Source: an uncultured virus (IMG/VR IMGVR_UViG_3300017747_004058) (taxonomy: Duplodnaviria; Heunggongvirae; Uroviricota; Caudoviricetes). Taken from it: 64,000 bases of DNA. Positions within the stretch are counted from its first letter, which is position 1. Each line of letters begins with the position of its first letter. Below, piece after piece: positions 2,416 to 48,949 of this stretch. The translations under genes were made by a program, and so were the position numbers. The notes beneath the pieces are model-generated. The model did not search any database. It had not been told where the DNA came from and saw only the letters and a program-made list of their open reading frames with translations. The stretch is from the IMG/VR virus record IMGVR_UViG_3300017747_004058. One strand, written 5' to 3'.

Positions 2416-3101
2416 AGCCCAAAAAGACCCCAGACCCCGCTCCAATTACGCCTAAAAAGCGTCCCGGCCGGCCCAAACGCATTACGCCCTTGTCTTTTTT
2501 AGACGACCTGGATGAGCGCCGCCTGGAAAACGCCCGCAGGAGCACAAAAAATGGCACTAGACCCCCCAAAGAGTCTTTAGAGCCGATTCCTGAAGCCCTA
2601 ATTAAGGTGCTGGCTGAGCGTGCCCTCCACGAACGGCTCCTAAAAGAGGAATACAAGGCCAAGGGCATCCCCTATAGGCGGCCGCCTGGGACCAAACTCA
2701 CCCTGGACGAGCGTTTGGACACCATAGAGGACTGGATCACGCGCGGGCTAATCAAGGCGGACCTAAGCAGCAATGGCCATGGTGATTTTGCCGCACTTTT
2801 GCGCGTGTGGCAGGAAAATGCCAAGATTCGCGGCCAAATTAGCGGGGAATACAACCCCGCCGGCGATAAGCAAGCCGCCCCCCAGCAGCAAAACAACACT
2901 GTGGTGCAGTTTTTTGGCATTCCTGGCATGGTGAGCGCAGAGGAAGCGCAAAGAATCCTTAGCGACAGCGGCATAGGGGCGCTGGGGAGTGAAAAAGCGC
3001 TCAATGCGCCGGAAAAGCTCCGTACCCTGGAGGAGACTCTAGGGCCAGTAGACCTGGAGCCAAAAGAAATTGACGGGGTACTTGTTTTTGAGAGCGAATA
3101 G
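2412..3101 (+). CDS. Putative terminase small subunit / DNA-binding protein
   Basis: Basic N-terminus (KKRPGRPKR), helical core, upstream of TerL; position-based inference. Confidence 0.4.
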   Translation: MKPKKTPDPAPITPKKRPGRPKRITPLSFLDDLDERRLENARRSTKNGTRPPKESLEPIPEALIKVLAERALHERLLKEEYKAKGIPYRRPPGTKLTLDERLDTIEDWITRGLIKADLSSNGHGDFAALLRVWQENAKIRGQISGEYNPAGDKQAAPQQQNNTVVQFFGIPGMVSAEEAQRILSDSGIGALGSEKALNAPEKLRTLEETLGPVDLEPKEIDGVLVFESE

Positions 3102-3119
3102 GTTTAATATAAACTTATG
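3082..3119 (+). promoter_or_regulatory. sigma70-like promoter with overlapping 19-bp palindromic operator; leaderless start
   Basis: TTGTTT(3082)-17nt-TAATAT(3105)-6nt-ATG(3117); palindrome copy TAGGTTTAATATAAACTTA at 3099-3117. Confidence 0.65.
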
Positions 3120-3554
3120 AATGAACTCAACCAAAAAGCAATCGACGACCGAGGTCTGCGCCGTAAGCATGTCGCTGTGCCCGATAGCCGGTTGCAGAAC
3201 GCGCAAGCCTATATGAGCAAAGAGGAGTTGCAAGACTCTCGTGCTCGCATGCGTAATGCTTTGCAGTTCGACCCTGCCGCAGCGTGTGACAATGTTCCTA
3301 CGCCGGCCGCCAGCTATATGGACACCTTGGCACAAGTGAATACGGAGCTGGAGCGTCTGCGAGAAGCCCATGACCTGCTGCGGACCTCCCTGAGCCCCTT
3401 TTTGCAGGTGCCTATCCCCACGCCCATGCGCGACGAGCCCATGTCGCCGGAGACCCGCGAGTCCGACGCGAGCTTGGTCATCTTTGGCATCATTCGGCAA
3501 GTTCGTGCGGCGACTGAAGACATTTTGAACGTTATCGATCGGTTCCGGCCCTAG
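3117..3554 (+). CDS. Hypothetical coiled-coil protein
   Basis: 145-aa ORF starting at the last base of the palindromic motif. Confidence 0.6.
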   Translation: MNELNQKAIDDRGLRRKHVAVPDSRLQNAQAYMSKEELQDSRARMRNALQFDPAAACDNVPTPAASYMDTLAQVNTELERLREAHDLLRTSLSPFLQVPIPTPMRDEPMSPETRESDASLVIFGIIRQVRAATEDILNVIDRFRP

Positions 3555-5368: not shown

Positions 5369-8300
5369 ATGCCCAAGAAGCTAAACACTCTTTCGCAGCC
5401 GGCTACGCCCTTAATTGCTGACCCAGGAGTCGCCGGCCGCAGCATACCTAATGGACCGGCAATGGCCGAGAAGGCGCTCTGGGAGCCTAATAACGGGTTC
5501 CAAATGAATGCCTTATTTAGGACTGAGTTTGAAGTCCTTTTAGCGGGCGAGAAAGGAAGTGGCAAGGCCACCAGTCTCGACGCCTTAATTTGCACACCTG
5601 CCGGCTGGCTTACTATGGGAGAGATCCGCGTAGGCGATGAGATCTCTAACCCGTGCGGCGGTGTGCAAAGAGTCTTAGCTATCCACCCCCAGGGACCAAA
5701 GCAGCTCTACAAGCTCACATTCCAGGATGGGTCTTCCATTGAATGCTGTGAAGATCATCTTTGGTACGGACACTGGACTGCCAATCGCCGGCGCATTAAG
5801 GGAAAGCGTGCAGAAGGATTAGTAGAGCCCATGACACGCCGTGTGTACTCTACCAAGGAGATCATGGCTAAGATGGCCGTGAAGCGTGGTCCTAAGTCGG
5901 TGCCGAACAATTTTGTTATCCCCCTTACGCAGCCGGTGGAGCGTGCGGGAGTTAAGCCCTTTATGGGGCCGTATTCATTGGGCGCTTTTCTTGGTGATGG
6001 TTCTTTATCGTCTGGTTGTCGCATAACGACCATGGATGAAGAAATCATAGAGTTCATGCGGGTGGAGCTGGAACCTGGAACCGAACTCGTTAAGCAAAAA
6101 ACCGGGGATCGTTGTTCTTCTTGGCGATTGGCCGATAAGAATAAGGCACTGCACAAACTAAGAGAACTTGGCGTAGCAGGAACGGCCGAGCACAAGTTTA
6201 TTCCCGACATTTGCAACCTCTGGTCCGTAGAAGACAGGTTTGCTTTATTACAGGGCCTCATGGACACAGACGGGTACGCTAGCGGGCACGGAGCAGAATA
6301 CTATTCCATTAGCTACCCATTGTGCGTTGGCGTGCAGCAGCTCGCATGGTCGTTAGGGTATAGCGCCAAGATCACCGGGCCTAAATTTAAGAAGTATCCC
6401 TATAACGGGGAAATGCGAACTGGTAAAGCTCGCTGGTTAGTGCGCATCCAGGGAGACGACACTAAAAGACTTTTTAGGCTGGAGCGTAAAAAGTCCAAGT
6501 GTCAGCAGCAGTACGGCAACGGGTACAAGTGGTATCCAGGCCGGAAGCTAGTCTCGATTGAAGACGCTGGCATTAAGCCCGCCCAGTGCATCACGGTGTC
6601 CGGCGAACAGGGCACATACGTTACTAGTGACTATCTGGTCACGCACAACACGGCACTGACCCAGTTTTGGCTCACCCGTGGAAACTGGAACAGGCTCCCC
6701 GTGGACGGTTACAAATGGGCCCTTCCCCCTAATCCCACGGCCACCGACCGCAGCTACATTTACCATCCCGGCTACACGGCCCTGGTAGTCCGCCGCACGC
6801 AGCCAGAACTCACCGCCTATATCCGCGAAGGCATGGAGATCTGGAAGCATTATGGGGGCGTGGATAAGCAAGACCCCCTGCGCGTGGAATTCCCTCTGTA
6901 CGATAAAATAACCGGGCGCCTAGTTGACGCCAATAAGGTAGGCGCAACATTTTGGTTCGGGCATTTAAGTGACGAGAACTCCTGGCTCCGTTATGTGGGT
7001 ATTGCTCGTACTCGTGTGGTTGTTGAAGAGGCCATCCAGCTCCCCGAGATTAACCTGTTCATGAAATTGCGTTCCTGCGTGCGCTCGCCGTACCCGGAGA
7101 TGAAAGAGCAAATCTACCTAACCACCAACTGGCTGGGCCCTGGTGTCATGTGGCTGGACGACCGGTACTGCAAAGGGCTTAGGAGCGGCAAGGATTCCAT
7201 TGTTCGCGTGGTGACTGGGTATACGAAGGCCGCGGGCAAACTAGAGTCCGTCATGCGGACTGTGGAAGCCGAAGGCGAAGACCTTGTTCCCGGCACCATT
7301 ATCCATGAAACCATTAAGGACGAGAACACGGGCGAAACCTATGTAAGTGACCGGGTATACCTGCACGGGTGCTTAAAAGATAATCCTATACAGAATACTG
7401 CTCGTTATCGCGCCACGCTGATCTCGGGCACAGACCAGGAAGTCGCAGCTTATTATTACGGCCGGCGCGATGCAGCTACGGGCAGCTTTTTTAGGTCATT
7501 CCGTACTAAGCGCATGCTCGACCTGGACGGCCGACCCATGGAGCCCGATAATGCCCTCCACGTCTTAAGCGGTGACCAGCACAGACCACGCCTGCAATCC
7601 TGGTACAGACGCGCAGTAGGTGCTGACTACGGCTTTAATCACAATGCCGCATTCGTCCTGGGCATCATGGAAGAGCCTATTAGCCGCCTGCACTGCGCCG
7701 AGGAGTTTAGTGCCCCTGGCTTTGGCTTGGACGACTTTGGGATTAGTATTGGTCAGGCCATTGAACGCGCCGGCCTAGACGACCTAGAATACGCCGTGCC
7801 TGTATTCTTGTCCCATGATTGCTTCCATAATACGAACGACGGGCCCACAGAAGCAGACCATATTGCGAACGGCATTCGCAAAGTAATTGGTGAAAGCCGT
7901 GTCCTCATGCGGCCGGACATATTCGCTGAAGGCCAAACTCCCACTGCCGTAGACGAGGCTAGTGTGGTCGTAGTCCGCGGCTATAACAAGCGCGTGGCCG
8001 GCTGGCGGCATATGCAGGAACTCCTCCGCTGGAAGGCAGACCTCATAGAAGCTAATGTCGCTGGGTATTCCATGGGAGAGGCGCAGAAGATCCTCTTAGA
8101 GCGTGGAGAAACCGCCTTTAACGACTATTTAGCCCAGTGGCAGCGCATCATGCCCACGACTCGCCCCCAAATGGTTCTCTGGGACAATATGCGCAAGCTT
8201 GCCAAGGCCATACAACAAGCCCAGCATGACGAAAACGACCCGGAAGACGTGCGTAAAAAGCACTGGGAAGGGGCCGATATCCTGGAAGCCTGCCGGTATC

Positions 8301-8542
8301 TGGCCATGGGGATTAATATCCTCTCCCGCGCCACCGAACCCTCCCATGTGAAATTTCTGCGTGAAATAGAGCAAGCCCGTGCGCGTGGCGCATCGCCAAC
8401 CACAATCCACATGATGACTATGACTGCCATGCGTAAAGTGGCACAAAAGGCGCAATCAACTAGCAACTTCGTCCCCATTGTTCCTGGCAGTCGCCGGTCT
8501 CGTGTGCTCTGGAACAGGCACGCGCAAAATACAGTAAACTAA
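5369..8542 (+). CDS. terL: Terminase large subunit, intein-containing
   Basis: Walker A GEKGSGK|T split by an intein, Walker B VVVEE, motif LTTN, nuclease GADYG...; upstream of portal. Confidence 0.88.
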   Translation: MPKKLNTLSQPATPLIADPGVAGRSIPNGPAMAEKALWEPNNGFQMNALFRTEFEVLLAGEKGSGKATSLDALICTPAGWLTMGEIRVGDEISNPCGGVQRVLAIHPQGPKQLYKLTFQDGSSIECCEDHLWYGHWTANRRRIKGKRAEGLVEPMTRRVYSTKEIMAKMAVKRGPKSVPNNFVIPLTQPVERAGVKPFMGPYSLGAFLGDGSLSSGCRITTMDEEIIEFMRVELEPGTELVKQKTGDRCSSWRLADKNKALHKLRELGVAGTAEHKFIPDICNLWSVEDRFALLQGLMDTDGYASGHGAEYYSISYPLCVGVQQLAWSLGYSAKITGPKFKKYPYNGEMRTGKARWLVRIQGDDTKRLFRLERKKSKCQQQYGNGYKWYPGRKLVSIEDAGIKPAQCITVSGEQGTYVTSDYLVTHNTALTQFWLTRGNWNRLPVDGYKWALPPNPTATDRSYIYHPGYTALVVRRTQPELTAYIREGMEIWKHYGGVDKQDPLRVEFPLYDKITGRLVDANKVGATFWFGHLSDENSWLRYVGIARTRVVVEEAIQLPEINLFMKLRSCVRSPYPEMKEQIYLTTNWLGPGVMWLDDRYCKGLRSGKDSIVRVVTGYTKAAGKLESVMRTVEAEGEDLVPGTIIHETIKDENTGETYVSDRVYLHGCLKDNPIQNTARYRATLISGTDQEVAAYYYGRRDAATGSFFRSFRTKRMLDLDGRPMEPDNALHVLSGDQHRPRLQSWYRRAVGADYGFNHNAAFVLGIMEEPISRLHCAEEFSAPGFGLDDFGISIGQAIERAGLDDLEYAVPVFLSHDCFHNTNDGPTEADHIANGIRKVIGESRVLMRPDIFAEGQTPTAVDEASVVVVRGYNKRVAGWRHMQELLRWKADLIEANVAGYSMGEAQKILLERGETAFNDYLAQWQRIMPTTRPQMVLWDNMRKLAKAIQQAQHDENDPEDVRKKHWEGADILEACRYLAMGINILSRATEPSHVKFLREIEQARARGASPTTIHMMTMTAMRKVAQKAQSTSNFVPIVPGSRRSRVLWNRHAQNTVN
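5567..6649 (+). mobile_element. 361-aa intein with in-frame LAGLIDADG homing endonuclease; Ala1, class-3-like
   Basis: Starts ATSLDALICTPAG; block B CCEDHLW; LAGLIDADG blocks LGAFLGDG and LQGLMDTDG; block F AQCITV; ends VTHN|T. Confidence 0.9.
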
Positions 8543-40700: not shown

Positions 40701-42646
40701 TAAGGGTATGCCTCGTAGGTGGCCGGCTGCCCGGTGATGAAGTCGGTTTGCAGGTCAGTGCTGGCAAGTACGCCGTTGTACTCGAACTGGCAATTACTGA
40801 ATTCGTTCTCAGTGTACTTGGTTTCCACGCCGCCTCTAAATATGCCTACTTCCCAGTTGTCCATTTTGTTCTGGGATAGGATCGTGCGGTTGATATCTCC
40901 AGTGCTGTCTTCGCTGACTGCGTAGGCTTTGTCGTCACGTGCTTGGCCGCCTTTGGCCATGTTGTTGGTGACCATGATGTCGTCGAAGTCACCGGAGCCG
41001 TTGTTTTGCAAGTGGTAGCCAATGCGACCGACGCGGTGAATAGTCTGCACACCTGTGCCTGTGGTGGTGATATCCACAGCAGCGCCGCCTTGGGTTAGGG
41101 ACAGCTTCAGGGTATTGGCAGCAGAATTGATTACGTAGTAGGGGAATACGCTAGTGGAGAGGCCCGCGGGAAGGGTGCCCGTAGTGGTTAGATAGACGCG
41201 CTCATTAGTGTCAAAGGTATGCCCAGTGGCGGTAATGGTATCTGTGGACGGGTCTGCCGTAAACGTGAAGTTGGAGGCGTAGAGAATGACTTGGTTACCG
41301 GCGATCTGCACGCGGCGAATGTTGTTGTTGTTCTCTGCGTAGACTTTTAGGCCGGAGGTCTGAAACCAGAACGGTGCCAGTCCATTGAGTAGGTTATCGG
41401 TGACCTGCACATTTTCGTAAGTGATGCCGGAATGTACTCCGGCAAGTACAGACAAGGGACCGCTATTGAATGCTTGGTTGTTGGTTACTGTGGCGTTTTG
41501 ACCGATGATCTCGTAGGCATAGTACCCGCAGTCTCGGACTACATTGCCCCGGCACTGGAATCCATCAACCTGGGAGAACGAGACCGCCCACGAACGTCCG
41601 TAAGTCTTGCCGGGTTGCAACTGGGCCCGAATTCGATTGTTAGTTACGCTGGCGTGGTGGCAATAGTTTCCCGGCGTGCCGTTGGACCAGATTTCAATCC
41701 CTAGTGAATCAGCAGCCGAAATGTCCCCGACAAGCACATCGCAGTCGTCCACGACTACATCGTAAAGCTGTGCTGCCGCGGTACCTAAGAGCTTGCAGCA
41801 ACTACCACTATCGGTGCCGTCAAAAGTGCTGCCCTTAATCGTGATGTCACGCGAGTCTGTTGATCCCAGCGTAGTATGATAGATTCCGGCAAATGCGTTG
41901 GTTGCGCCCCAGGCTGAGTGATAAGTCCGTATAAACTTCACCCGTGTCCACTCGCAGCCTCCGACACCGTACCCCGTATTATTGATAGTTTCCAGCCCTT
42001 CCAGCAACGCATCCATAACGGTGGTTAGCAGGAGTCCAGTTACGTTAAATGTTGCGGACTGAACATTGCGAAGGCCATCGATTACGAAATTGCGCAGCTC
42101 GATGTTGGACACACCTGTCGCGGTGATGAATGGCACGTTATCTACGGCGGTCCCAGGGACCTGGATAATCCGCGAACCTGCGCCGTAGCCGTAGAGCACG
42201 GCATTGGAAGGAATGGTCAAATTAGATGCGCCACAAGCTCCATATGGGATGAGTAAGCCAACCTTTTGCGCCGCGGTGGCATTGATTGCTGCCTGAATTC
42301 GTGTGGTGGAATCTGTACCCCAGTGAAGCTCCGCATCAGAGAAAGAGGAACCGGAAGCCGCCGAAATAGTAATAGACGTAGAAGAGGCGACTGCGGTGAT
42401 GGTGCCATAAAGCAGTAAACCGCCGGCTTTATAGATGCCGAATCTTTTTCCCACTGGGTAGCGGGAACTGGCGGGGTCCAGGGAAAAATTTGCCGTCGCG
42501 CTGGTGACCGTGCTCCCTGGTGAGGCCATGGCGGCGTCGGTCACCGATCGCCAATCCATGCGTACTTGCCATGCGAGCACGGATGGCACTGCGCCCAGGA
42601 GATCCGCAACTTCTACGCTTGCTGCACCGGTGTAATCAATCGACAT
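40700..42646 (-). CDS. Tail spike-like parallel beta-helix protein with one inserted beta module
   Basis: GTDST..IQAAINA...L.IP.G motif; repeated V..N beta-helix rungs. Confidence 0.7.
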   Translation of the reverse strand: MSIDYTGAASVEVADLLGAVPSVLAWQVRMDWRSVTDAAMASPGSTVTSATANFSLDPASSRYPVGKRFGIYKAGGLLLYGTITAVASSTSITISAASGSSFSDAELHWGTDSTTRIQAAINATAAQKVGLLIPYGACGASNLTIPSNAVLYGYGAGSRIIQVPGTAVDNVPFITATGVSNIELRNFVIDGLRNVQSATFNVTGLLLTTVMDALLEGLETINNTGYGVGGCEWTRVKFIRTYHSAWGATNAFAGIYHTTLGSTDSRDITIKGSTFDGTDSGSCCKLLGTAAAQLYDVVVDDCDVLVGDISAADSLGIEIWSNGTPGNYCHHASVTNNRIRAQLQPGKTYGRSWAVSFSQVDGFQCRGNVVRDCGYYAYEIIGQNATVTNNQAFNSGPLSVLAGVHSGITYENVQVTDNLLNGLAPFWFQTSGLKVYAENNNNIRRVQIAGNQVILYASNFTFTADPSTDTITATGHTFDTNERVYLTTTGTLPAGLSTSVFPYYVINSAANTLKLSLTQGGAAVDITTTGTGVQTIHRVGRIGYHLQNNGSGDFDDIMVTNNMAKGGQARDDKAYAVSEDSTGDINRTILSQNKMDNWEVGIFRGGVETKYTENEFSNCQFEYNGVLASTDLQTDFITGQPATYEAYP

Positions 42647-42893
42647 GAGAGATGACTACTAGGTTGTTGGGGTTTAGGGTGGAATTCGCTAGGCTGACCA
42701 GCGCTCCTTCAAGCGAACTGACCCGGCCGCCCAGGTAGTCAAAGTTCCTTTGCAGGAGTTTGACCGACGATGAGCTGTGCCGGGCCAATTGACCGATTAA
42801 ATTATCCTGGGGAAGCTTACCCGCCACGCTGTCCATGCCGGCCGAGTCTATGGCGGGACTCCCAGGGAGGCGCAATGGGGTAAAAGCGAGCAT
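42636..42893 (-). CDS. Hypothetical protein (first gene of the minus-strand tail module)
   Basis: TAAACT-6nt-ATG upstream; overlaps the next gene. Confidence 0.5.
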   Translation of the reverse strand: MLAFTPLRLPGSPAIDSAGMDSVAGKLPQDNLIGQLARHSSSSVKLLQRNFDYLGGRVSSLEGALVSLANSTLNPNNLVVISHVD

Positions 42894-42902
42894 GGTTTAA
42901 GT

Positions 42903-43193
42903 TTACACTGGCGGAGCTGGAGATGCCCACGGCCGTTTTGGATTGTCCGCAGCCATATGAATAGGCAAAGGGGCAATGCCGAAAACGGGCTCCACCTTGA
43001 GGGCTTTCACTTGCCTCGTGAGGACATCGTGATACTTGCGAGCGTACAGGGCGTCAGCGGCCTCCTTAGCGGCTGCACGGGCCTGGAGCACGCAAGATAC
43101 ATACCGTGCGGTATTGGGCGTGGAGAAGCAGACCAGGGCCATGATAAGGAGCACAAGACCGGTCAGGCTTAAAAGAGTCGTTAAGACTTCCAT
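42903..43193 (-). CDS. Membrane-anchored hypothetical protein
   Basis: N-terminal TM segment; AAAGGT SD. Confidence 0.55.
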   Translation of the reverse strand: MEVLTTLLSLTGLVLLIMALVCFSTPNTARYVSCVLQARAAAKEAADALYARKYHDVLTRQVKALKVEPVFGIAPLPIHMAADNPKRPWASPAPPV

Positions 43194-43373
43194 GGGGATT
43201 ACCTTTTATTTTCACCTTTCTGAGGATTCTCTTGGTTGTTTGGGCAGCGGGGTTTGGGGGCCCCATGTTGCTGGCGGCCGGCGGTTTTGGGAGGAGCAAT
43301 CCCTGCCGGCCGCCAGTTTATTAGTGCCGGAGTACTAGTCAATTGCACTCCGATCCTAATCTTTTGTGCGCCC

Positions 43374-43607
43374 CTACTTGCGCCTACGAGGTTCTGGTCC
43401 CTCGTGCTTTATAGGAGCGCCAATATCCTTAAGCGCTTGCTCCACCAAGGCACTTTTGCGCTTACCCCGCAGCACCATGCCAATGAACTGCGGGCTCTTG
43501 CCTAGTTTAGCGGCCAACTGAGAACTTACTCCTCGGTTGTCGGCTACCCAGTGGCGAGCCTCTTGCAGTTTTTCAGCGGCCGCGGCCTTTGTTGCGCGAA
43601 ATCCCAT
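43374..43607 (-). CDS. Small HTH (Cro/XRE-like) regulator
   Basis: SQLAAKLGKSPQFIGMVLRGKRKS helix-turn-helix; palindrome overlaps its start codon. Confidence 0.7.
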   Translation of the reverse strand: MGFRATKAAAAEKLQEARHWVADNRGVSSQLAAKLGKSPQFIGMVLRGKRKSALVEQALKDIGAPIKHEGPEPRRRK

Positions 43608-43622
43608 AGGTTAAGTATAAAC

Positions 43623-44099
43623 CTAACCGTCCCCGTCCGCAACCCCAAGGAGCTTCAGGGTGTTAGTGACGTATGGGGCCCCTTCTTCGTAGCATTTTTC
43701 GATGTCGGCCGCGCTCATGTACTGGAGGAGTTTTTCCTTGCTGAGTGTGCGCCGGCCGGACATGGTTTTGGAATAGAAAGCGGTCTGGCCGAATCGCATC
43801 CCAGGAAGGGAGAACTTGGTTTGGATCTCCGCGAGCTGGGACTTAATGACTCCCACGCGGGCCTCGTGTTTGATCTTGGCACCGGGCTTATCGGGGTCGT
43901 CGATATAGGAGAGCGCAACCAGCTCTTCCATGAGTTCCTTTGCGAGGGCCATTTTAGCCCGCGGCAAGGTGGAGATCAGGGGGAGTTCAGCGGCCTTAAC
44001 GGGAGCTGATTTGGCCGGGGGCGCTGGAAGTGTTGGGAGCGCTTGGACCGATTGTGTTGGGGTAGGCGCTGGCGCTGGTGAAGTGTTTTTCTTTGCCAT
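43623..44099 (-). CDS. Hypothetical protein
   Basis: Directly downstream of a consensus promoter. Confidence 0.65.
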   Translation of the reverse strand: MAKKNTSPAPAPTPTQSVQALPTLPAPPAKSAPVKAAELPLISTLPRAKMALAKELMEELVALSYIDDPDKPGAKIKHEARVGVIKSQLAEIQTKFSLPGMRFGQTAFYSKTMSGRRTLSKEKLLQYMSAADIEKCYEEGAPYVTNTLKLLGVADGDG

Positions 44100-44100
44100 T

Positions 44101-44136
44101 TAGGTTTAATATAAACTCACGCGCACCGGCTGTCAA
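44101..44136 (-). promoter_or_regulatory. sigma70 promoter with palindrome over the -10 element
   Basis: TTGACA(44136-44131)-17nt-TATATT(44113-44108); motif at 44101-44119. Confidence 0.8.
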
Positions 44137-44176
44137 GGACAATTTTTGCAAAGGCTCTTTAAGGGGAGGAATTCCT

Positions 44177-44371
44177 TTAAGCATTGCCGTCCATCCATTC
44201 GGTGACCGGCCGGACGCCCCAGATTTCACGTTTAAGGAGCCAGATTTCGTCTTTCTCCCCGGTCATAATTACGTGACGGTAGAGTTTTTCGCGGCTAAGA
44301 TTGTTCTGCCAAAGGAACACGGAGAGGATTGTGCTTTCGTGGCGAGCGTATTCAGTGGTGAGGACGGGCAT
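44177..44371 (-). CDS. Hypothetical protein
   Basis: TAGGC-TACAAT-TAAACCT-ATG motif/leaderless start. Confidence 0.5.
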   Translation of the reverse strand: MPVLTTEYARHESTILSVFLWQNNLSREKLYRHVIMTGEKDEIWLLKREIWGVRPVTEWMDGNA

Positions 44372-44393
44372 AGGTTTAATTGTAGCCTAGCGC

Positions 44394-46829
44394 CTAGTCC
44401 TTAATCCAGCGGTCCATAATCTTGCCGTCGCTGAGAACTGGCACCCTTAACGCACACTCGCCGGAGCCTAGATAATTCATAGAGGCGTTCATTTCCCTGG
44501 TCATAATGCCTTGGACCTCCTCAGCGTACTTTTGCTCCACTTCCACGATTAGCTCATCGTGAACGGGGAGAATCGCATTCACCCAGATGCCGTCTGCGCG
44601 TAGGGCACTAAAACACTGCTCCAGCTTGGCCATAGCGATCTTGAACACGCCGGCCGCGAGCCCTTGAATGGGCATGTTCCCGGCTTGGCGTAGCCCCGCG
44701 GCGACGATATGGTCGAACGAGCTATACACTTCCGGCACTTGGCGAATCCGGCCCGTGAGATCCCAGACGATGCCGTAATGCTTGGCGCACCAGTAGAGCC
44801 GGTCCATGTAGGCGCGGACATTAGGGTATAGGGCGAACCATGTGCGAATAAAGGAATCGCACCAGTCCAGGTCTATGAAGTCGGGCAGGGGAATGCCGGC
44901 CGTAGCGTAAGTAAGGGCCATGAGATCAAACAGGCCCCCACCGCCCAGGCCGTAGCAATTGCTGACCAGTTTACCCTCGCAAGTGAATCTATGGTCTGGC
45001 CCTACGTTCAAGATATCGTAGACGTGGGCCCAGTGCTCGCCTTGCTCACCTTGCTCTTTATGCCCCTCTTCCGGCGCGGCGGAACCTGCAATATAGCTGG
45101 CCACGTCCAGCCTTTCTTCACCAGCACCCTGGTGCGACCCTCGGAAAGATCGAAATCTGGGTAGTCCGCTTTCAGGGCTTGGTGCAGGTCCGTTGCAGTG
45201 ACTCGCCGCCCCTTGTAATCCGTCCACACGTTGCGCCGAGTATTGCGTAGATTGGTTCCGCGGGCTTCTAGAACCAAGTTTCCAGGTTTGTAGTGCCCGT
45301 TGTTGTTTATCCGGCCGATGTCCACCTTTCGATAGTCCTCGTGAGGAAGGTGTTCCAATATGTACGTTGCGAACTCCTCTGCGGACTTGAATTTGTTCTT
45401 TATCCCCCGGCCGCCATAATTTGCATAGTTCTGGTTTTTGGGATTTGTGCAGCGCTGAACAATGGCGTGGTACCGATCCATAAGCCGGCCTGCTGACTCC
45501 GCGGCGTCTGGAAACTTTACGGCCCTGCGGCATGTGCAACCGCGAGTCCTCCCGGCTAGCAGATTGTGGATTAAAAGAATGGCTATCCGGCCGCAAGCCG
45601 AGCATACCGCCTTCACTTGAAACCCTTGCTCCGTCTTCACCATAGAATCCTGGATCTGGAGCGTATCTAATGGGAGTTTCTTGACTAGCTGTAATCGCGA
45701 GTCTGAGTCCTTTGGCCATGGCCTCAGCAATCGGTAGAACTTGTCCACATCTGGTCCATACTTTGTGATCGGGAGTGGCGGTAATTCCATCCCAAGTGAC
45801 GACTTTTTTGTATCCATTGTAAATGACTCCTCCGTGGGAAACCCACGCTGTACCATCCCACAATAGCATATCCGGTGTCACGTTTTCAATAAATACCAAC
45901 CCCCTGCTAGTAAGCACGCGTTGTGATTTGGCTAAACACACCCCAAAGTTTACGTTTTTGCACGGGGCCCGGTGCAGGAGCTTGTCTACTTGGTGCTTTT
46001 CTAGGCCGAACGCCCGCATAGCCGTGTCTAAATGGATGTCTCCCTTGGGGTCCAGGAAGATGCGGATCATGTTTTGTTCGTGAGCGCAGTGAGCCAATAG
46101 GCGCAGTTCGATTTGCGAGAAGTCCTGGGAAATTAGGACATGACCACCGCCGGCAATGAATGCCTTGCGAACTTCCCGCCCCCAGGCTGAGCGTGCAGGG
46201 ATATTCTGGCAGTTGGGCCGTCGCATGGCTAAGCGGCCCGTGTCGGCGCGAGTGGTGACGATATCGCCGTGGATGCGCCAGAAGCCGTCTTTGTCCTTGC
46301 GGGCGTAGGAGGCGAGCTTTTGCGTGTAGGTGTTGCGAAGCTTGGCGGCTTCGCGGTACTCCAGGAGTAAGGGGATTACGGGGTGCCGGCGCTTGAGGGT
46401 TTCGAGTTGCTTTTTGCCGGTGCTAATAGCCTTGCCAGACTTGGTGGTTTTTAGGCGGTCCCCCTGGCCGATGTCCAGGACTTCAAAGAGTAGCTTGCCC
46501 ACCTGCTCGCTGGAGTTAACATTTAGGACCAGGGAGTCGATGCTATTTACTGCATCGCTGTCTGGGTCGTCGTCCAGGGCGCTGAGATCGCGGGTGCCAG
46601 CGAACATATGGGCCGCAGACACAGGAATATGCTGCTTAATGTCGCCCAATAATTGCTCCTGGCGGGATTCAAGCAGGCAGTCCACGTTCTCCAGCCAGTC
46701 AGGGTCAATGGCGGCCCCCACGGTCATCATGCGGCGGATCTGCGGGATGGGCAATAGGTCCAGCCGCCGGACGTTGGTGAGGTCCGGTTGGCCGGGGAGA
46801 GTGATATTGCCGAATAGCTTGTGGATCAC
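44394..46829 (-). CDS. polA: Family A DNA polymerase, polymerase domain only, intein-containing
   Basis: TGRLA..PNCQNIP, motif A DFSQIELR, motif B R...KNVNFGV|CYG split by an intein, motif C VHDEL. Confidence 0.93.
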   Translation of the reverse strand: MIHKLFGNITLPGQPDLTNVRRLDLLPIPQIRRMMTVGAAIDPDWLENVDCLLESRQEQLLGDIKQHIPVSAAHMFAGTRDLSALDDDPDSDAVNSIDSLVLNVNSSEQVGKLLFEVLDIGQGDRLKTTKSGKAISTGKKQLETLKRRHPVIPLLLEYREAAKLRNTYTQKLASYARKDKDGFWRIHGDIVTTRADTGRLAMRRPNCQNIPARSAWGREVRKAFIAGGGHVLISQDFSQIELRLLAHCAHEQNMIRIFLDPKGDIHLDTAMRAFGLEKHQVDKLLHRAPCKNVNFGVCLAKSQRVLTSRGLVFIENVTPDMLLWDGTAWVSHGGVIYNGYKKVVTWDGITATPDHKVWTRCGQVLPIAEAMAKGLRLAITASQETPIRYAPDPGFYGEDGARVSSEGGMLGLRPDSHSFNPQSASREDSRLHMPQGRKVSRRRGVSRPAYGSVPRHCSALHKSQKPELCKLWRPGDKEQIQVRRGVRNVHIGTPSSRGLSKGGHRPDKQQRALQTWKLGSRSPRNQSTQYSAQRVDGLQGAASHCNGPAPSPESGLPRFRSFRGSHQGAGEERLDVASYIAGSAAPEEGHKEQGEQGEHWAHVYDILNVGPDHRFTCEGKLVSNCYGLGGGGLFDLMALTYATAGIPLPDFIDLDWCDSFIRTWFALYPNVRAYMDRLYWCAKHYGIVWDLTGRIRQVPEVYSSFDHIVAAGLRQAGNMPIQGLAAGVFKIAMAKLEQCFSALRADGIWVNAILPVHDELIVEVEQKYAEEVQGIMTREMNASMNYLGSGECALRVPVLSDGKIMDRWIKD
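44958..45938 (-). mobile_element. 327-aa intein in PolA motif B, lacking an in-frame endonuclease
   Basis: Starts CLAKSQRVLTSRG; block B TATPDHKVW; block F VYDILNVG..HRF; ends LVSN|C. Confidence 0.9.
45008..45817 (-). CDS. HNH-type homing endonuclease overprinted in the +1 frame inside the intein
   Basis: CSACG...GCTC, RYHAIVQRCTNPKNQNYANYGGRGI, DIGRINNNGHYKPGN...NLRN, C-terminal HTH-like tail; GGAGGAG 9 nt upstream of ATG 45817. Confidence 0.85.
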   Translation of the reverse strand: MDTKKSSLGMELPPLPITKYGPDVDKFYRLLRPWPKDSDSRLQLVKKLPLDTLQIQDSMVKTEQGFQVKAVCSACGRIAILLIHNLLAGRTRGCTCRRAVKFPDAAESAGRLMDRYHAIVQRCTNPKNQNYANYGGRGIKNKFKSAEEFATYILEHLPHEDYRKVDIGRINNNGHYKPGNLVLEARGTNLRNTRRNVWTDYKGRRVTATDLHQALKADYPDFDLSEGRTRVLVKKGWTWPAILQVPPRRKRGIKSKVSKASTGPTSTIS

Positions 46830-46835
46830 GGGGGT

Positions 46836-47222
46836 CTATAGAGTTTCCAGGAAGTCTATTAGGTCGTCGCGCTGGGTGCGGCCATTGAGCGCTGAACTTC
46901 TGCGAATGGCTTGGTAGAGATCGAACATGGTCTCATAGCCCCCATAGAGGCGCAGTTCTTCCATGACGGTGTTTGGAGTGCCGAAAGCGTACAGCGCTCC
47001 ATCACCGGCTAGATCGCCCGTGATTATCTTTATGCGCATAGAGTCCGGTTCGACCATAAGATGCGCTGAAAATGGCCCTACCATCGCCGTGAATACTTCC
47101 CGTTCGCTGGACTCTGTTTTGTTCCAGGTGATTTTACTGTCTTGGGTTAGGCGTTCGAGCAGAGAGTAGATTTTCAGGTTCCGGTCCCGGTCGGTGTCGG
47201 CCTGTAGTTTGTAATTTATCAT
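46836..47222 (-). CDS. Hypothetical protein (apparent paralogue of neighbour)
   Basis: LLERLTQDSKITWNKT...LYQAIRR pattern. Confidence 0.6.
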   Translation of the reverse strand: MINYKLQADTDRDRNLKIYSLLERLTQDSKITWNKTESSEREVFTAMVGPFSAHLMVEPDSMRIKIITGDLAGDGALYAFGTPNTVMEELRLYGGYETMFDLYQAIRRSSALNGRTQRDDLIDFLETL

Positions 47223-47225
47223 GGG

Positions 47226-47549
47226 TTATTGCTCACTGTACTCATTTAGGACTAGCAAAGCGGCAGCTACGGCCTTAGCAGTTGCTTGGGATTGGGCAGT
47301 ACTGTAAAGAGTGGACAGCAGGTGCTTGGTTTCTGGATCGTCCCGTATATCAACCTTGGTGCAGAGGGGTCCAGCAGTTAATGCGAGCAAGTAGGACTCA
47401 GTTCCGTTTTTCCTGATCTGCACGATGCACGCTGCATAAGCTAGGAATGATGCACGGTACCTAAAGTCATGGCCAGCCGTGCGCTCCCATTGGAGCTTGC
47501 CGGTTCCGGTGACTTCGCAGAGTTTTTCGAGTAGATGTTTGGTTTTCAT
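47226..47549 (-). CDS. Hypothetical protein (apparent paralogue of neighbour)
   Basis: ATGA-coupled start at 47549; LLEKLCEVTGTGKLQWERT...LYSTAQ. Confidence 0.6.
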   Translation of the reverse strand: MKTKHLLEKLCEVTGTGKLQWERTAGHDFRYRASFLAYAACIVQIRKNGTESYLLALTAGPLCTKVDIRDDPETKHLLSTLYSTAQSQATAKAVAAALLVLNEYSEQ

Positions 47550-48949
47550 GTGAATATGTCCTCTTCTTCTACGGCCCAGGATTGCTCCATGACCGAGCGT
47601 AAATGTTCCAGCATCGTAGTGAGCCGGCCTTGCATGTCGGCATCCTTGCACGCATAGGTCAGTGCCGCGTCAAAGTCATCGTCGGCAGCATGGGCAATGG
47701 ACCTAATGGGTGCTCCGGTCATTAAATACTCTTTGCCCTTGGACCAGAGGTCGTAGGTTGGTTTGGACCCGTGTTTATGGAGATGCACTAAATGCTTCTC
47801 GCGCATTGTTGGCTTAAAGATCATTTTGGGCGGCTTAGGGGGCTTAGGCGGCTTGGTGCTTGGTCTTTTAGGCGGGAGCCGCTTGACGGGGCCCTGGGGG
47901 CGCGTTACGGGCACGGGTACGCGGTTCAGGCGCTCCTTGCCGAGTTCGTCCAGGAGCCAGAGCAAATAGGCATCCCTGGACGGCTTGCTCACGAGGTCTT
48001 CCCAGGATTGCATTCTTACGCCTAATAGCCTAAACGCCAAGTCCTTAAGCCCCTGGGGAAGGTTCCCCATATGAAACGCTTCCTGCTGGGTGTCTATGAA
48101 CTTCCCCGCGGGGACAGGGATTCCCAAGCGTTCGTAGGTGCCAATATCATGCGGGGCATTATGGAACGACACACCAGAGAACATAGGGTAGATTTGCTTG
48201 GCGAATTGGGCAATCAGGTCTTTATTGACGGCCAGGATAAGTCTCCCATGGCCGGGGCGAAAAGAGTATTGCAGGCTCCATGGCCGGGGTCCATCGTCCT
48301 CAGTATCGCTGGGGAGCCAAATATAGTCACTGGTGAGCGCGGCGGCTAGGTCGTCCTTGAATTCGCTTAGGGTGTCGGTAAGCTTGTAGTCTGTGGGAGT
48401 GTTATCCACGGGCGCGGACCATTGGCCGGCTAAATACTTTTTAAGCCTCCTATAGTCATCCAATAGGGGCAGCATCATGCGGGTATTATGTAGCCCGCCC
48501 GCTGGATGATACATAGGAATGATGACCGCACTGTGACCAAACAATTCCCCATTAAAGGGTATGCCGTGCTGCTTGGCTAGGTCGATTTCATACTGGGTGC
48601 CGTCCAGTAGGGAGCAAGCGGTGCCGCCCATGAGGAATACGTGGGTAGGTTGTTGGCGGTCAAGCTCACCGGGCAAATGGTGCTGGGAACAGGCCGCGAT
48701 CTCGGGGGGCTTGGGTTTGTCGTTGCCGCCGCACTTGACCGTGTTGGTGAGATAGATTTCGCTACGGGATAGTCCGGCGAGGGGGAGATAATTGGTGTTA
48801 AATTCCTTACCGGCGCGGCCTATCAGGGGCCGGCCAACATTCTCCTCCTCACGGCCGGGTTTTTCGCCAATGAAAAAATACGGCGAATCGCGGGGGCCAT
48901 CTCCCGGGACACAGGAGTAGTAATCGCAGGTGGAGCAGCGGCTAAACAT
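47546..48949 (-). CDS. Family-4 uracil-DNA glycosylase domain fused to PolA-type 3'-5' exonuclease
   Basis: CxxC, GEKPG..E...G.P..G.AG, TN.VKC, YHP (UDG4); DTE, HNAPHD, YACKD (Exo I/II/III). Confidence 0.88.
   Translation of the reverse strand: MFSRCSTCDYYSCVPGDGPRDSPYFFIGEKPGREEENVGRPLIGRAGKEFNTNYLPLAGLSRSEIYLTNTVKCGGNDKPKPPEIAACSQHHLPGELDRQQPTHVFLMGGTACSLLDGTQYEIDLAKQHGIPFNGELFGHSAVIIPMYHPAGGLHNTRMMLPLLDDYRRLKKYLAGQWSAPVDNTPTDYKLTDTLSEFKDDLAAALTSDYIWLPSDTEDDGPRPWSLQYSFRPGHGRLILAVNKDLIAQFAKQIYPMFSGVSFHNAPHDIGTYERLGIPVPAGKFIDTQQEAFHMGNLPQGLKDLAFRLLGVRMQSWEDLVSKPSRDAYLLWLLDELGKERLNRVPVPVTRPQGPVKRLPPKRPSTKPPKPPKPPKMIFKPTMREKHLVHLHKHGSKPTYDLWSKGKEYLMTGAPIRSIAHAADDDFDAALTYACKDADMQGRLTTMLEHLRSVMEQSWAVEEEDIFT

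Follow-up and report, generated by a model that had tools for sequence, protein, structure and literature searches.

An HNH-like gene nested out of frame within a DNA polymerase intein of an uncultured phage

We analyzed a 64,000-nucleotide (nt) stretch of DNA from an uncultured virus of the Caudoviricetes (IMG/VR record IMGVR_UViG_3300017747_004058), here called the window, with a focus on a DNA polymerase gene that holds an intein and, inside the intein, a second gene in another reading frame. The window is phage-like, and its genes include those for a large terminase, major tail and tail-fibre proteins, helicases and a Sak4-like protein. Its family-A DNA polymerase gene (polA) encodes a precursor of 811 amino acids (aa) in which a 327-aa insert separates two stretches matching Pfam DNA_pol_A (Table 1). 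A blastn search of phage records with this gene gave no match. A preliminary description, made from the sequence alone, had proposed an intein at this position with an endonuclease gene overprinted in the +1 frame, and all of its coordinates for the intein and the nested gene hold, on the minus strand.

TABLE 1 Features of the polymerase locus in the window (ORF, open reading frame; pLDDT, predicted local distance difference test score)
Feature	Coordinates	Strand	Basis
Family-A DNA polymerase gene (polymerase domain only), 811-aa precursor including intein	44394..46829	-	ORF; Pfam DNA_pol_A 6.6e-83 in two stretches; phrog_17 5.6e-74
N-extein, 297 aa, last residues ...KNVNFGV in polymerase motif B	45939..46829	-	Alignment with intein-less homologues
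Intein, 327 aa, Cys1 to terminal Asn	44958..45938	-	Motifs; insert exactly absent from 463-486 aa homologues
N-terminal splicing domain, polA residues 298-391, blocks A (CLAKSQRVLT) and B (TPDH)	45657..45938	-	AlphaFold beta strands, block pLDDT 65-90; phrog_26005 9.6e-13
Shine-Dalgarno-like GGAGGAG, 9 nt 5' of ATG 45817	45827..45833	-	Sequence read directly
Nested +1-frame gene, 269-aa HNH-like (homing-endonuclease-like) protein	45008..45817	-	phrog_374 1.3e-22; frame open from 45856; stop TGA 45010-45008
Polymerase-frame linker, polA residues 392-596, 205 aa, open, R/S/G-rich	45042..45656	-	pLDDT <50 throughout; no family match
C-terminal splicing domain, residues 597-624, blocks F (VYDILNVGPDHRF) and G (LVSN)	44958..45041	-	Beta strands E599-607, E614-617, E620-623
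C-extein, 187 aa + stop, first residues CYGLGGGG	44394..44957	-	ORF and homologue alignment

The splicing blocks reported in the preliminary description (CLAKSQRVLT, TPDH, VYDILNVGPDHRF and LVSN/C) are all present at the two ends of the insert. It starts with CLAKSQRVLT, of which the Cys1 codon occupies 45938 to 45936, has TPDH approximately 55 residues in, and ends in ...HVYDILNVGPDHRFTCEGKLVSN at 44958, with the terminal Asn codon at 44960 to 44958 and the +1 Cys codon at 44957 to 44955. The hallmarks of class 1 inteins, namely an N-terminal nucleophile, a block B of the form TxxH and a C-terminal Asn followed by Cys, Ser or Thr, are found here as Cys1, TPDH and LVSN/C. When compared to the intein-less homologues P0048, P0049 and P0052 (463 to 486 aa), all 327 residues are gapped and the polymerase sequence is continuous across the site (VNFGV-GYGLG); intein-less homologues are approximately 50 to 60% identical to the window in the exteins. 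Because splicing motifs lie at its ends and it is exactly absent from homologous polymerases, the insert is confirmed, by sequence comparison, as an intein in polymerase motif B. Only two PHROG families match the intein, phrog_26005 (function unknown, 9.6e-13) and phrog_93 (0.025), and its link to annotated 'intein-containing DNA polymerase' records was made via tblastn. No related loci were obtained when viral contigs were searched with the intein alone, and no second copy of the intein or the nuclease was found elsewhere within the window. A group I intron with a homing endonuclease gene was considered for the insert and rejected, because no Rfam RNA family matched at E ≤ 1 over 44300 to 46900 and because intein blocks flank an uninterrupted host frame.

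Structure prediction of both frames, a check proposed in the preliminary description, separates the intein into splicing domains at its ends and a center of no predicted structure. AlphaFold, run on the whole polymerase with 21 homologues, confidently predicts the polymerase and the strands of the splicing domains and gives a pLDDT below 50 for residues 392 to 596. The N-terminal splicing domain is 47 to 68% identical to that of 11 intein-bearing homologues and the C-terminal splicing domain 57 to 90% identical to homologues, and the linker reaches 21 to 30% identity to 10 homologues and 46% to P0034. As the preliminary description had stated, the polymerase-frame center holds no recognizable domain: PHROG, Pfam and NCBIfam searches gave no match beyond the N-terminal splicing part.

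The same DNA encodes a second protein on the same strand. The nested gene lies wholly within the intein, and its stop codon falls within the block-F codons; both the Shine-Dalgarno (SD)-like sequence and the ATG are composed of intein codons (H-G-G-V and Y-N-G, respectively). Two PHROG families labelled HNH endonuclease match the product (phrog_374, 1.3e-22; phrog_3377, 1.2e-20), and 33 relatives were found. Predicted by AlphaFold with 17 relatives, the protein has a mean pLDDT of 78.6, with 119 residues at 90 or above and block values of 81 to 96 over most of residues 41 to 260, dipping to 52 to 77 at 101 to 120, 131 to 150 and 201 to 210. A beta domain around CxxC...CxC forms its N terminus, followed by a core of helices and beta strands and a C-terminal tail that is helical. 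The family shares the conserved core RC.NP...NYGGRGI...[DG]RI.N.G.Y.PGN...N.RN, and an alignment of 18 sequences, window included, has 16 invariant columns (C, C, G, C, C, R, C, N, Y, G, R, R, G, Y, N and N). Among the predicted viral structures of BFVD there are 80 matches at E ≤ 0.001, several of them named HNH, homing endonuclease or AP2-domain protein, and in the ESM Atlas the nearest clusters are viral and unnamed, with DNA-binding NUMOD modules in 15 to 45% of members.

The double openness of this DNA was assessed with 2000 synonymous-codon shuffles per locus, in which the peptide of one frame was fixed and the other frame was scored for openness. For the window, fixing the nested protein gave an open polA frame in 0 of 2000 shuffles, and fixing the polA-frame peptide gave an open nested frame in 3 of 2000. 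The third frame of the overlap contains 16 stops. Of 11 loci shuffled in this manner, 7 never had an open polA frame in 2000 shuffles and 7 never had an open nested frame; the third frame has 11 to 26 stops. Because synonymous shuffles almost never leave both frames open, the two frames, already described as open in the preliminary description, are open beyond chance and are kept open by selection.

The assembly was examined using Logan contigs from two freshwater-metagenome runs of two studies (X1 and X2), which is a partial check, as these are contigs and not raw reads. X1 contigs match the window with 0 gaps and 0 mismatches over 44801 to 45007, 45013 to 45163, 45197 to 45465 and 45528 to 45946, and X2 contigs do so over 44960 to 45241. 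The stretches without contig cover are 44394 to 44800 (X1), 45008 to 45012, 45164 to 45196, 45466 to 45527 and 45947 to 46095. The paired indel errors named as a concern in the preliminary description are therefore contradicted where contigs cover the locus, and the cover is partial. A separate observation concerns one X2 contig, which equals the intein exactly over 44960 to 45099 and then continues with 11 unlike letters on the extein side, at most 2 nt from the intein/C-extein junction; another X2 contig matches the C-extein of the window. The junction contig may come from the same intein in a second polymerase allele or may be a mere contig end (depth 4).

To see how widely the layout occurs, we turn to the relatives, a search that the preliminary description had also proposed. 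A tblastn search of 50,697 phage records with the nested protein matched 526 records, the best of them under 'DNA polymerase I' of Streptococcus Javan phages. The intein matched 162 records and, of the 60 matches listed, all but one fall either in a gene annotated as DNA polymerase or where the gene label or the annotation is missing. In a first set comprising the window and 13 phage records, a nested gene, defined as a same-strand ORF of at least 200 aa inside the polymerase intein, is present in 11 of the 14 loci. The offset is +1 in six (the window, Javan255, Gardnerella AB1, APSE-1, Caulobacter GB2A and Shewanella SFCi1) and +2 in five (Sodalis SO-1, Shigella EP23, Salmonella Jerseyvirus, EBPR siphovirus 2 and Vibrio 97.13). 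Two of these are not isolates, namely EBPR siphovirus 2 (a partial sequence with no host recorded) and the UNVERIFIED_ORG record of Vibrio phage 97.13. The three loci without a nested ORF, from two Ruminococcus phages and Javan422, have short inteins. All 10 non-window ORFs match the nested protein of the window by blastp (1e-19 to 5e-8).

The sample was widened by scanning metagenome and viral contigs with an alignment of the window protein and its six closest relatives, which added 147 loci (the best 80 of 537 metagenome hits and 67 viral loci). The nuclease core is matched at 158 loci in all, which divide into 63 nested genes, 88 free-standing genes and 7 odd cases. The 63 nested loci, 58 of them distinct by DNA, have Hint-type flanks in the host frame, with the nuclease at offset +1 in 54 and at +2 in 9. 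No locus among the 158 has the nuclease sharing a frame with a Hint or extein match.

Three further loci depart from this pattern. In two viral contigs (L131, 1449 to 4297; L136, 1443 to 4300), the polymerase is divided over two ORFs, the N-part ending just past the N-terminal splicing part and the C-part starting at block F, and a homologous nuclease ORF (2566 to 3369) overlaps the ends of both; this is the split-intein 'fractured gene' form of the same element. At L044 (1401 to 2159), the host frame is broken in the spacer (2 to 1630 and 1784 to 2695, in the same frame) and the nested nuclease ORF is intact, which could mean that the element is split, that the polymerase is dead or that the assembly is in error.

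A start codon lies upstream of the nuclease core in all 58 distinct nested loci, with 1 to 19 candidate starts per ORF. At 21 of the 58, an ATG is placed exactly 145 or 148 nt into the intein, behind GAGG or AGGAG in 19 of the 21, and both the ATG and the SD-like motif derive from the conserved intein codons ...E-V-I-x-Y/W-D-G. The window has no SD at the +145/+148 site; its predicted start is an ATG 27 nt upstream with a stronger SD. For three of the six closest relatives, gene callers placed the start at the Met equivalent to that of the window.

Selection on each frame across homologues was analyzed by counting differences by host-frame codon position in 10 pairs of related loci, 8 at offset +1 and 2 at +2 (Table 2). 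At +1, host position 1 corresponds to nuclease position 3, and at +2, host position 2 does. The codon-position periodicity switches in these pairs: the wobble signal belongs to the polymerase frame outside the nuclease core and to the nuclease frame inside it. Purifying selection thus acts on the nuclease frame in the core and on the polymerase frame elsewhere, as established in pairs of relatives. The same signal marks the nuclease frame as a gene that works or did so until recently, and the sole constraint on the spacer in the polymerase frame is that it stays open.

TABLE 2 Differences between related loci at host-frame codon positions 1/2/3
Region	8 pairs at offset +1	2 pairs at offset +2
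N-extein	275/189/520	29/17/99
N-terminal splicing part (HintN)	86/55/187	8/15/18
Nuclease core	463/219/177	8/37/19
After nested stop	285/242/622	31/21/111

The intein and its host gene differ in divergence. In P0034, the closest polymerase, the exteins are 91 to 93% identical to those of the window, the N-terminal splicing part 61% and the spacer 46%. The loci L019 and L020 show 0 differences in 571 intein sites versus 16 of 450 and 105 of 446 in the flanks, and the pairs L016/L101 and SO-1/EP23 are discordant in the same direction as L019/L020. Intein-free alleles are frequent among the polymerase homologues. These discordances match the prediction of homing and are no proof that the nested protein drives it.

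It is likely that the locus is a composite mobile element, with two genes in one stretch of DNA. The two-protein reading put forward in the preliminary description, a mini-intein with a tolerated unstructured linker and a separately translated nuclease gene, is well supported by comparative evidence, because the layout is shared by 63 loci, selection is frame-specific, an SD and an ATG are in place, and a disordered linker stands against a folded +1 product. Frame 0 encodes a class-1-type intein made of an N-terminal splicing domain of approximately 94 aa, an unstructured spacer of approximately 205 aa that need only be free of stop codons, and a C-terminal splicing domain of 28 aa. As its motifs and its exact absence in homologues suggest, the intein would splice itself out and ligate ...NFGV to CYGLG..., which would give back a polymerase of 484 aa; given the unbroken 811-aa frame, the intein is contiguous and cis-splicing is expected. 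The 269-aa nuclease-like protein of the +1 frame would be translated separately, from ATG 45817 behind GGAGGAG, both built from codons of the N-terminal domain of the intein; the sequence and the conserved starts of relatives point to this. In co-infected cells, the nuclease would most likely cut polymerase alleles that lack the intein, at the motif-B site or close to it, and repair would copy intein and nuclease gene together, which is homing. The presence of intein-free alleles in relatives and the disagreeing divergences of intein and exteins argue for this last step.

Several observations weigh against this interpretation. The penultimate residue of block G is Ser (LVSN, 44961 to 44963), where His is usual, and no Hint or intein family was found on the 327-aa intein (Pfam, E ≤ 10; NCBIfam, E ≤ 1). 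An SD-like 4- to 5-mer lies 4 to 18 nt 5' of a start in 47 of the 58 distinct loci, which is weak alone given a permissive regular expression and many candidate starts. Some loci are reused among the 10 pairs of Table 2, which are not independent, and X1 is possibly the sample from which the window was assembled. As regards the nested protein, the window's copy has no match in Pfam (E ≤ 10) or NCBIfam (E ≤ 1), and the 18 aligned family members share no invariant histidine and have no Pfam HNH match in any member, one having an I-HmuI_NUMOD-like match. Foldseek against the PDB returned nothing at E ≤ 0.001, its weak rows being unrelated proteins, and the profile of the nuclease family gave a chance hit only against PDB sequences (E 0.44). 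In a wide VIA-align search, PacI (3m7k_A) ranked second over residues 112 to 210 (Z 5.5; root mean square deviation 3.4; 84 aligned), below the tool's informative level. The consensus of 17 intein-bearing homologues likewise reads KLVSN at block G, and Javan255 has VHN.

PacI is an HNH enzyme in which a tyrosine rather than a histidine reportedly starts cleavage. Such a mechanism would fit the invariant tyrosines of the nested protein, a lead and not a result. The 'HNH' label is weak, and nuclease activity is an assumption resting on family labels, because no histidine is invariant and the resemblance to solved structures is weak. For the full HNH-type endonuclease seen in the preliminary description, the ORF is confirmed and HNH-labelled PHROG families match it; no Pfam HNH domain and no invariant His were found. 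Its doubt about activity, drawn from IGR in place of IDR in the core, is unfounded: Gly occupies that position in 6 of the 18 aligned family members, so it is no signal of a defect.

Other explanations of the locus differ in what they leave of the two genes. An assembly artefact, by which two compensating indel errors moved an ordinary in-frame endonuclease domain out of frame, was a caveat of the preliminary description itself, and the window is apparently metagenome-derived. Against this, the same out-of-frame layout recurs in 62 other loci, with the nuclease in frame in none, and 10 of the 13 GenBank phage records examined are among these loci (2 of those 10 not isolates), with Javan255, Gardnerella AB1, APSE-1, SO-1, EP23, Jerseyvirus, Caulobacter GB2A and Shewanella SFCi1 among the named isolates; the contigs of two runs are moreover gap-free where they cover the locus, including 45528 to 45946 and 44960 to 45241. 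An artefact is thus barely conceivable. Nor do we expect programmed ribosomal frameshifting, which would yield an N-extein-HintN-nuclease fusion from the polymerase frame and leave the nuclease with no start of its own. The nested ORF does open within the translated polA frame, but offsets of +1 and +2 (54 and 9 loci) would demand two different shift mechanisms, every one of the 58 distinct loci has a start codon upstream of the core, the fixed-place ATG (+145/+148) occurs in 21 and is accompanied by an SD-like motif in 19, and the window itself has GGAGGAG-N9-ATG, all of which makes frameshifting highly improbable.

Two remaining possibilities accept a separate gene and question what it does. 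The window's +1 ORF may be a relic, no longer expressed or active, inside a mini-intein that persists with its spacer. Homing elements are expected to decay after fixation, and the family lacks the canonical H-N-H triad and a Pfam HNH match. We regard decay as unlikely all the same: the ORF is intact and keeps all 16 invariant columns (the window being one of the 18 aligned), the nested frame was open by chance in 3 of 2000 shuffles, and relatives show third-position-biased change in the nuclease frame. Alternatively, the +1 protein may be no homing nuclease and may instead bind DNA, regulate, or cut DNA for packaging or phage competition, with the intein as a safe landing site. The missing invariant histidine, the nearest Atlas clusters, which are unnamed apart from NUMOD in 15 to 45% of members, and the 88 free-standing relatives outside any intein would fit such a role. 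It is nevertheless very unlikely, since a single insertion site in one gene across very different phages, together with the intein/extein discordance, is what homing predicts; related predicted structures are also named HNH or homing endonuclease, although these are labels and not tests.

A bolder extension of the composite element, which we offer tentatively and think rather doubtful, is that the nuclease family is obligately separate from the intein, the two being co-adapted selfish partners coupled via translation of the polymerase mRNA, and that the nuclease is a histidine-less HNH relative with a different catalytic residue. Separateness is suggested because the nuclease is never fused in frame in the 63 nested loci, at two offsets, and the 2 split-intein loci; co-adaptation and coupled expression are suggested because the ribosome-binding site and the start codon are written in conserved codons of the intein splicing domain. 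If true, the textbook route, by which inteins are invaded by free-standing endonucleases that turn into in-frame domains, would be blocked for this family, and the overlap would be a stable end state rather than a passing stage.

The surroundings of the polymerase gene add some observations of their own. Between the tail-fibre-like gene and the polymerase (42636 to 44400, minus strand) there are only small ORFs without family matches, such as 43623 to 44099 (158 aa, no PHROG match), and many overlapping alternative ORFs on both strands. At 47546 to 48949 (minus strand), a 467-aa protein combines a domain of the uracil-DNA-glycosylase superfamily (Pfam UDG, 4.5e-22, residues 15 to 158) with a stretch resembling the N-terminal part of phage polymerases, which matches phrog_17 positions 483 to 815. 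It seems that a gene of its own encodes the exonuclease-side part of the polymerase, with two small ORFs between it and the downstream polymerase domain. The large terminase (5369 to 8542, plus strand; 1057 aa) contains an in-frame LAGLIDADG_3 domain (Pfam, 2.2e-06, residues 290 to 342); an intein-start-like sequence follows the Walker-A-like GEKGSGKAT, and ...YLVTHN/T resembles an intein end. Because of this in-frame domain and the intein-like start and end, the same phage seems to have a canonical in-frame intein as well, in its terminase.

Genes nested in this manner are annotated in public records. In GenBank, P46 of Hamiltonella phage APSE-1, an 'HNH endonuclease', is annotated inside DNA polymerase P45, and gp39 of Sodalis phage SO-1 is annotated inside gp38. 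Like the window, both phages have a homologous intein at the same family-A polymerase site and a homologous same-strand, out-of-frame nuclease ORF, with 27 to 28% identity to the nuclease of the window; the offset in APSE-1 is +1, as in the window, and in SO-1 it is +2. RefSeq notes on SO-1 (L003, NC_013600; 1594 to 4782 and 3078 to 3836) say 'type I self-splicing intron', which looks wrong, being contradicted by an open host frame (1063 aa) and its Hint-type (intein-type N-terminal) match.

Out-of-frame intein endonucleases have also been described in print. In the available part of their preprint, Gosselin, Arsenault and Gogarten (bioRxiv 2025) report actinophage inteins with the endonuclease in another frame or strand, including one with an endonuclease VII-like gene on the same strand, 'in reading frame 3', and an unstructured in-frame stretch, and propose that a free-standing endonuclease gene invades the intein; HNH inteins are given there as in-frame only. 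These inteins resemble that of the window in having a same-strand nuclease gene in another frame between the splicing blocks and a structureless in-frame product. They differ in the nuclease, which is endonuclease VII-like, and in their hosts (DNA polymerase III alpha, terminase, minor capsid and thymidylate synthase versus a family-A polymerase here). As far as the available text of Phillips, DeSimone and Gogarten goes (bioRxiv 10.64898/2026.09.14.751524), a cyanobacterial dnaX intein holds an out-of-frame LAGLIDADG endonuclease under frame-specific selection, secondary invasion of a mini-intein is proposed for it, and Gorbalenya 1998 is credited as the first proposer of an out-of-frame intein endonuclease. 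The dnaX intein shares with the window's family the selection on the endonuclease frame, the drifting extein-frame stretch and the lack, in that text, of any in-frame version; it differs in its cellular gene and LAGLIDADG nuclease.

Two other systems share one part of the arrangement each. According to the portion available of Arsenault et al. 2025 (PMC11855218), ShiLan-type elements are hidden out-of-frame HNH genes in phage DNA methylase genes, with no intein. They are like the window in placing an out-of-frame HNH-like gene inside an open host frame and in raising the same translation question, but have no splicing domains, whereas the nuclease gene of the window is flanked by intein blocks. 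In the fractured genes of Dassa et al. 2009 (PMC2677866, likewise available in part), the endonuclease is encoded by a free-standing gene that lies between the two halves of a split intein and overlaps each half at its ends. L131 and L136 have exactly this form, with the window's nuclease family; the window differs in its unbroken polymerase frame (811 aa), and a fractured gene with a split intein was accordingly rejected for the window itself, where the polymerase is a single ORF.

The preliminary description had left open whether the element is undescribed. For the kind, this is not borne out, as APSE-1 and SO-1 are annotated and out-of-frame intein endonucleases were described in 2025 and 2026. 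This polymerase/nuclease family appears not to have been written up: in the literature no paper was found on family-A polymerase inteins that hold an HNH-like gene on the same strand but in another frame, and supplementary tables of the preprints might list cases. Gene callers and intein surveys restricted to in-frame domains would score such elements as mini-inteins with odd spacers and miss the nuclease, an oversight that conceals a class of mobile elements abundant in the replication genes of phages. With dozens of loci, two offsets and split forms, the family is a large natural sample for how inteins acquire endonucleases, for the coevolution of overlapping genes with different selective interests and for the translation of nested genes. 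Set beside the known systems, the window is one further example, opening no new question, of a layout that is common among phages and of a kind annotated in public records and described in print.

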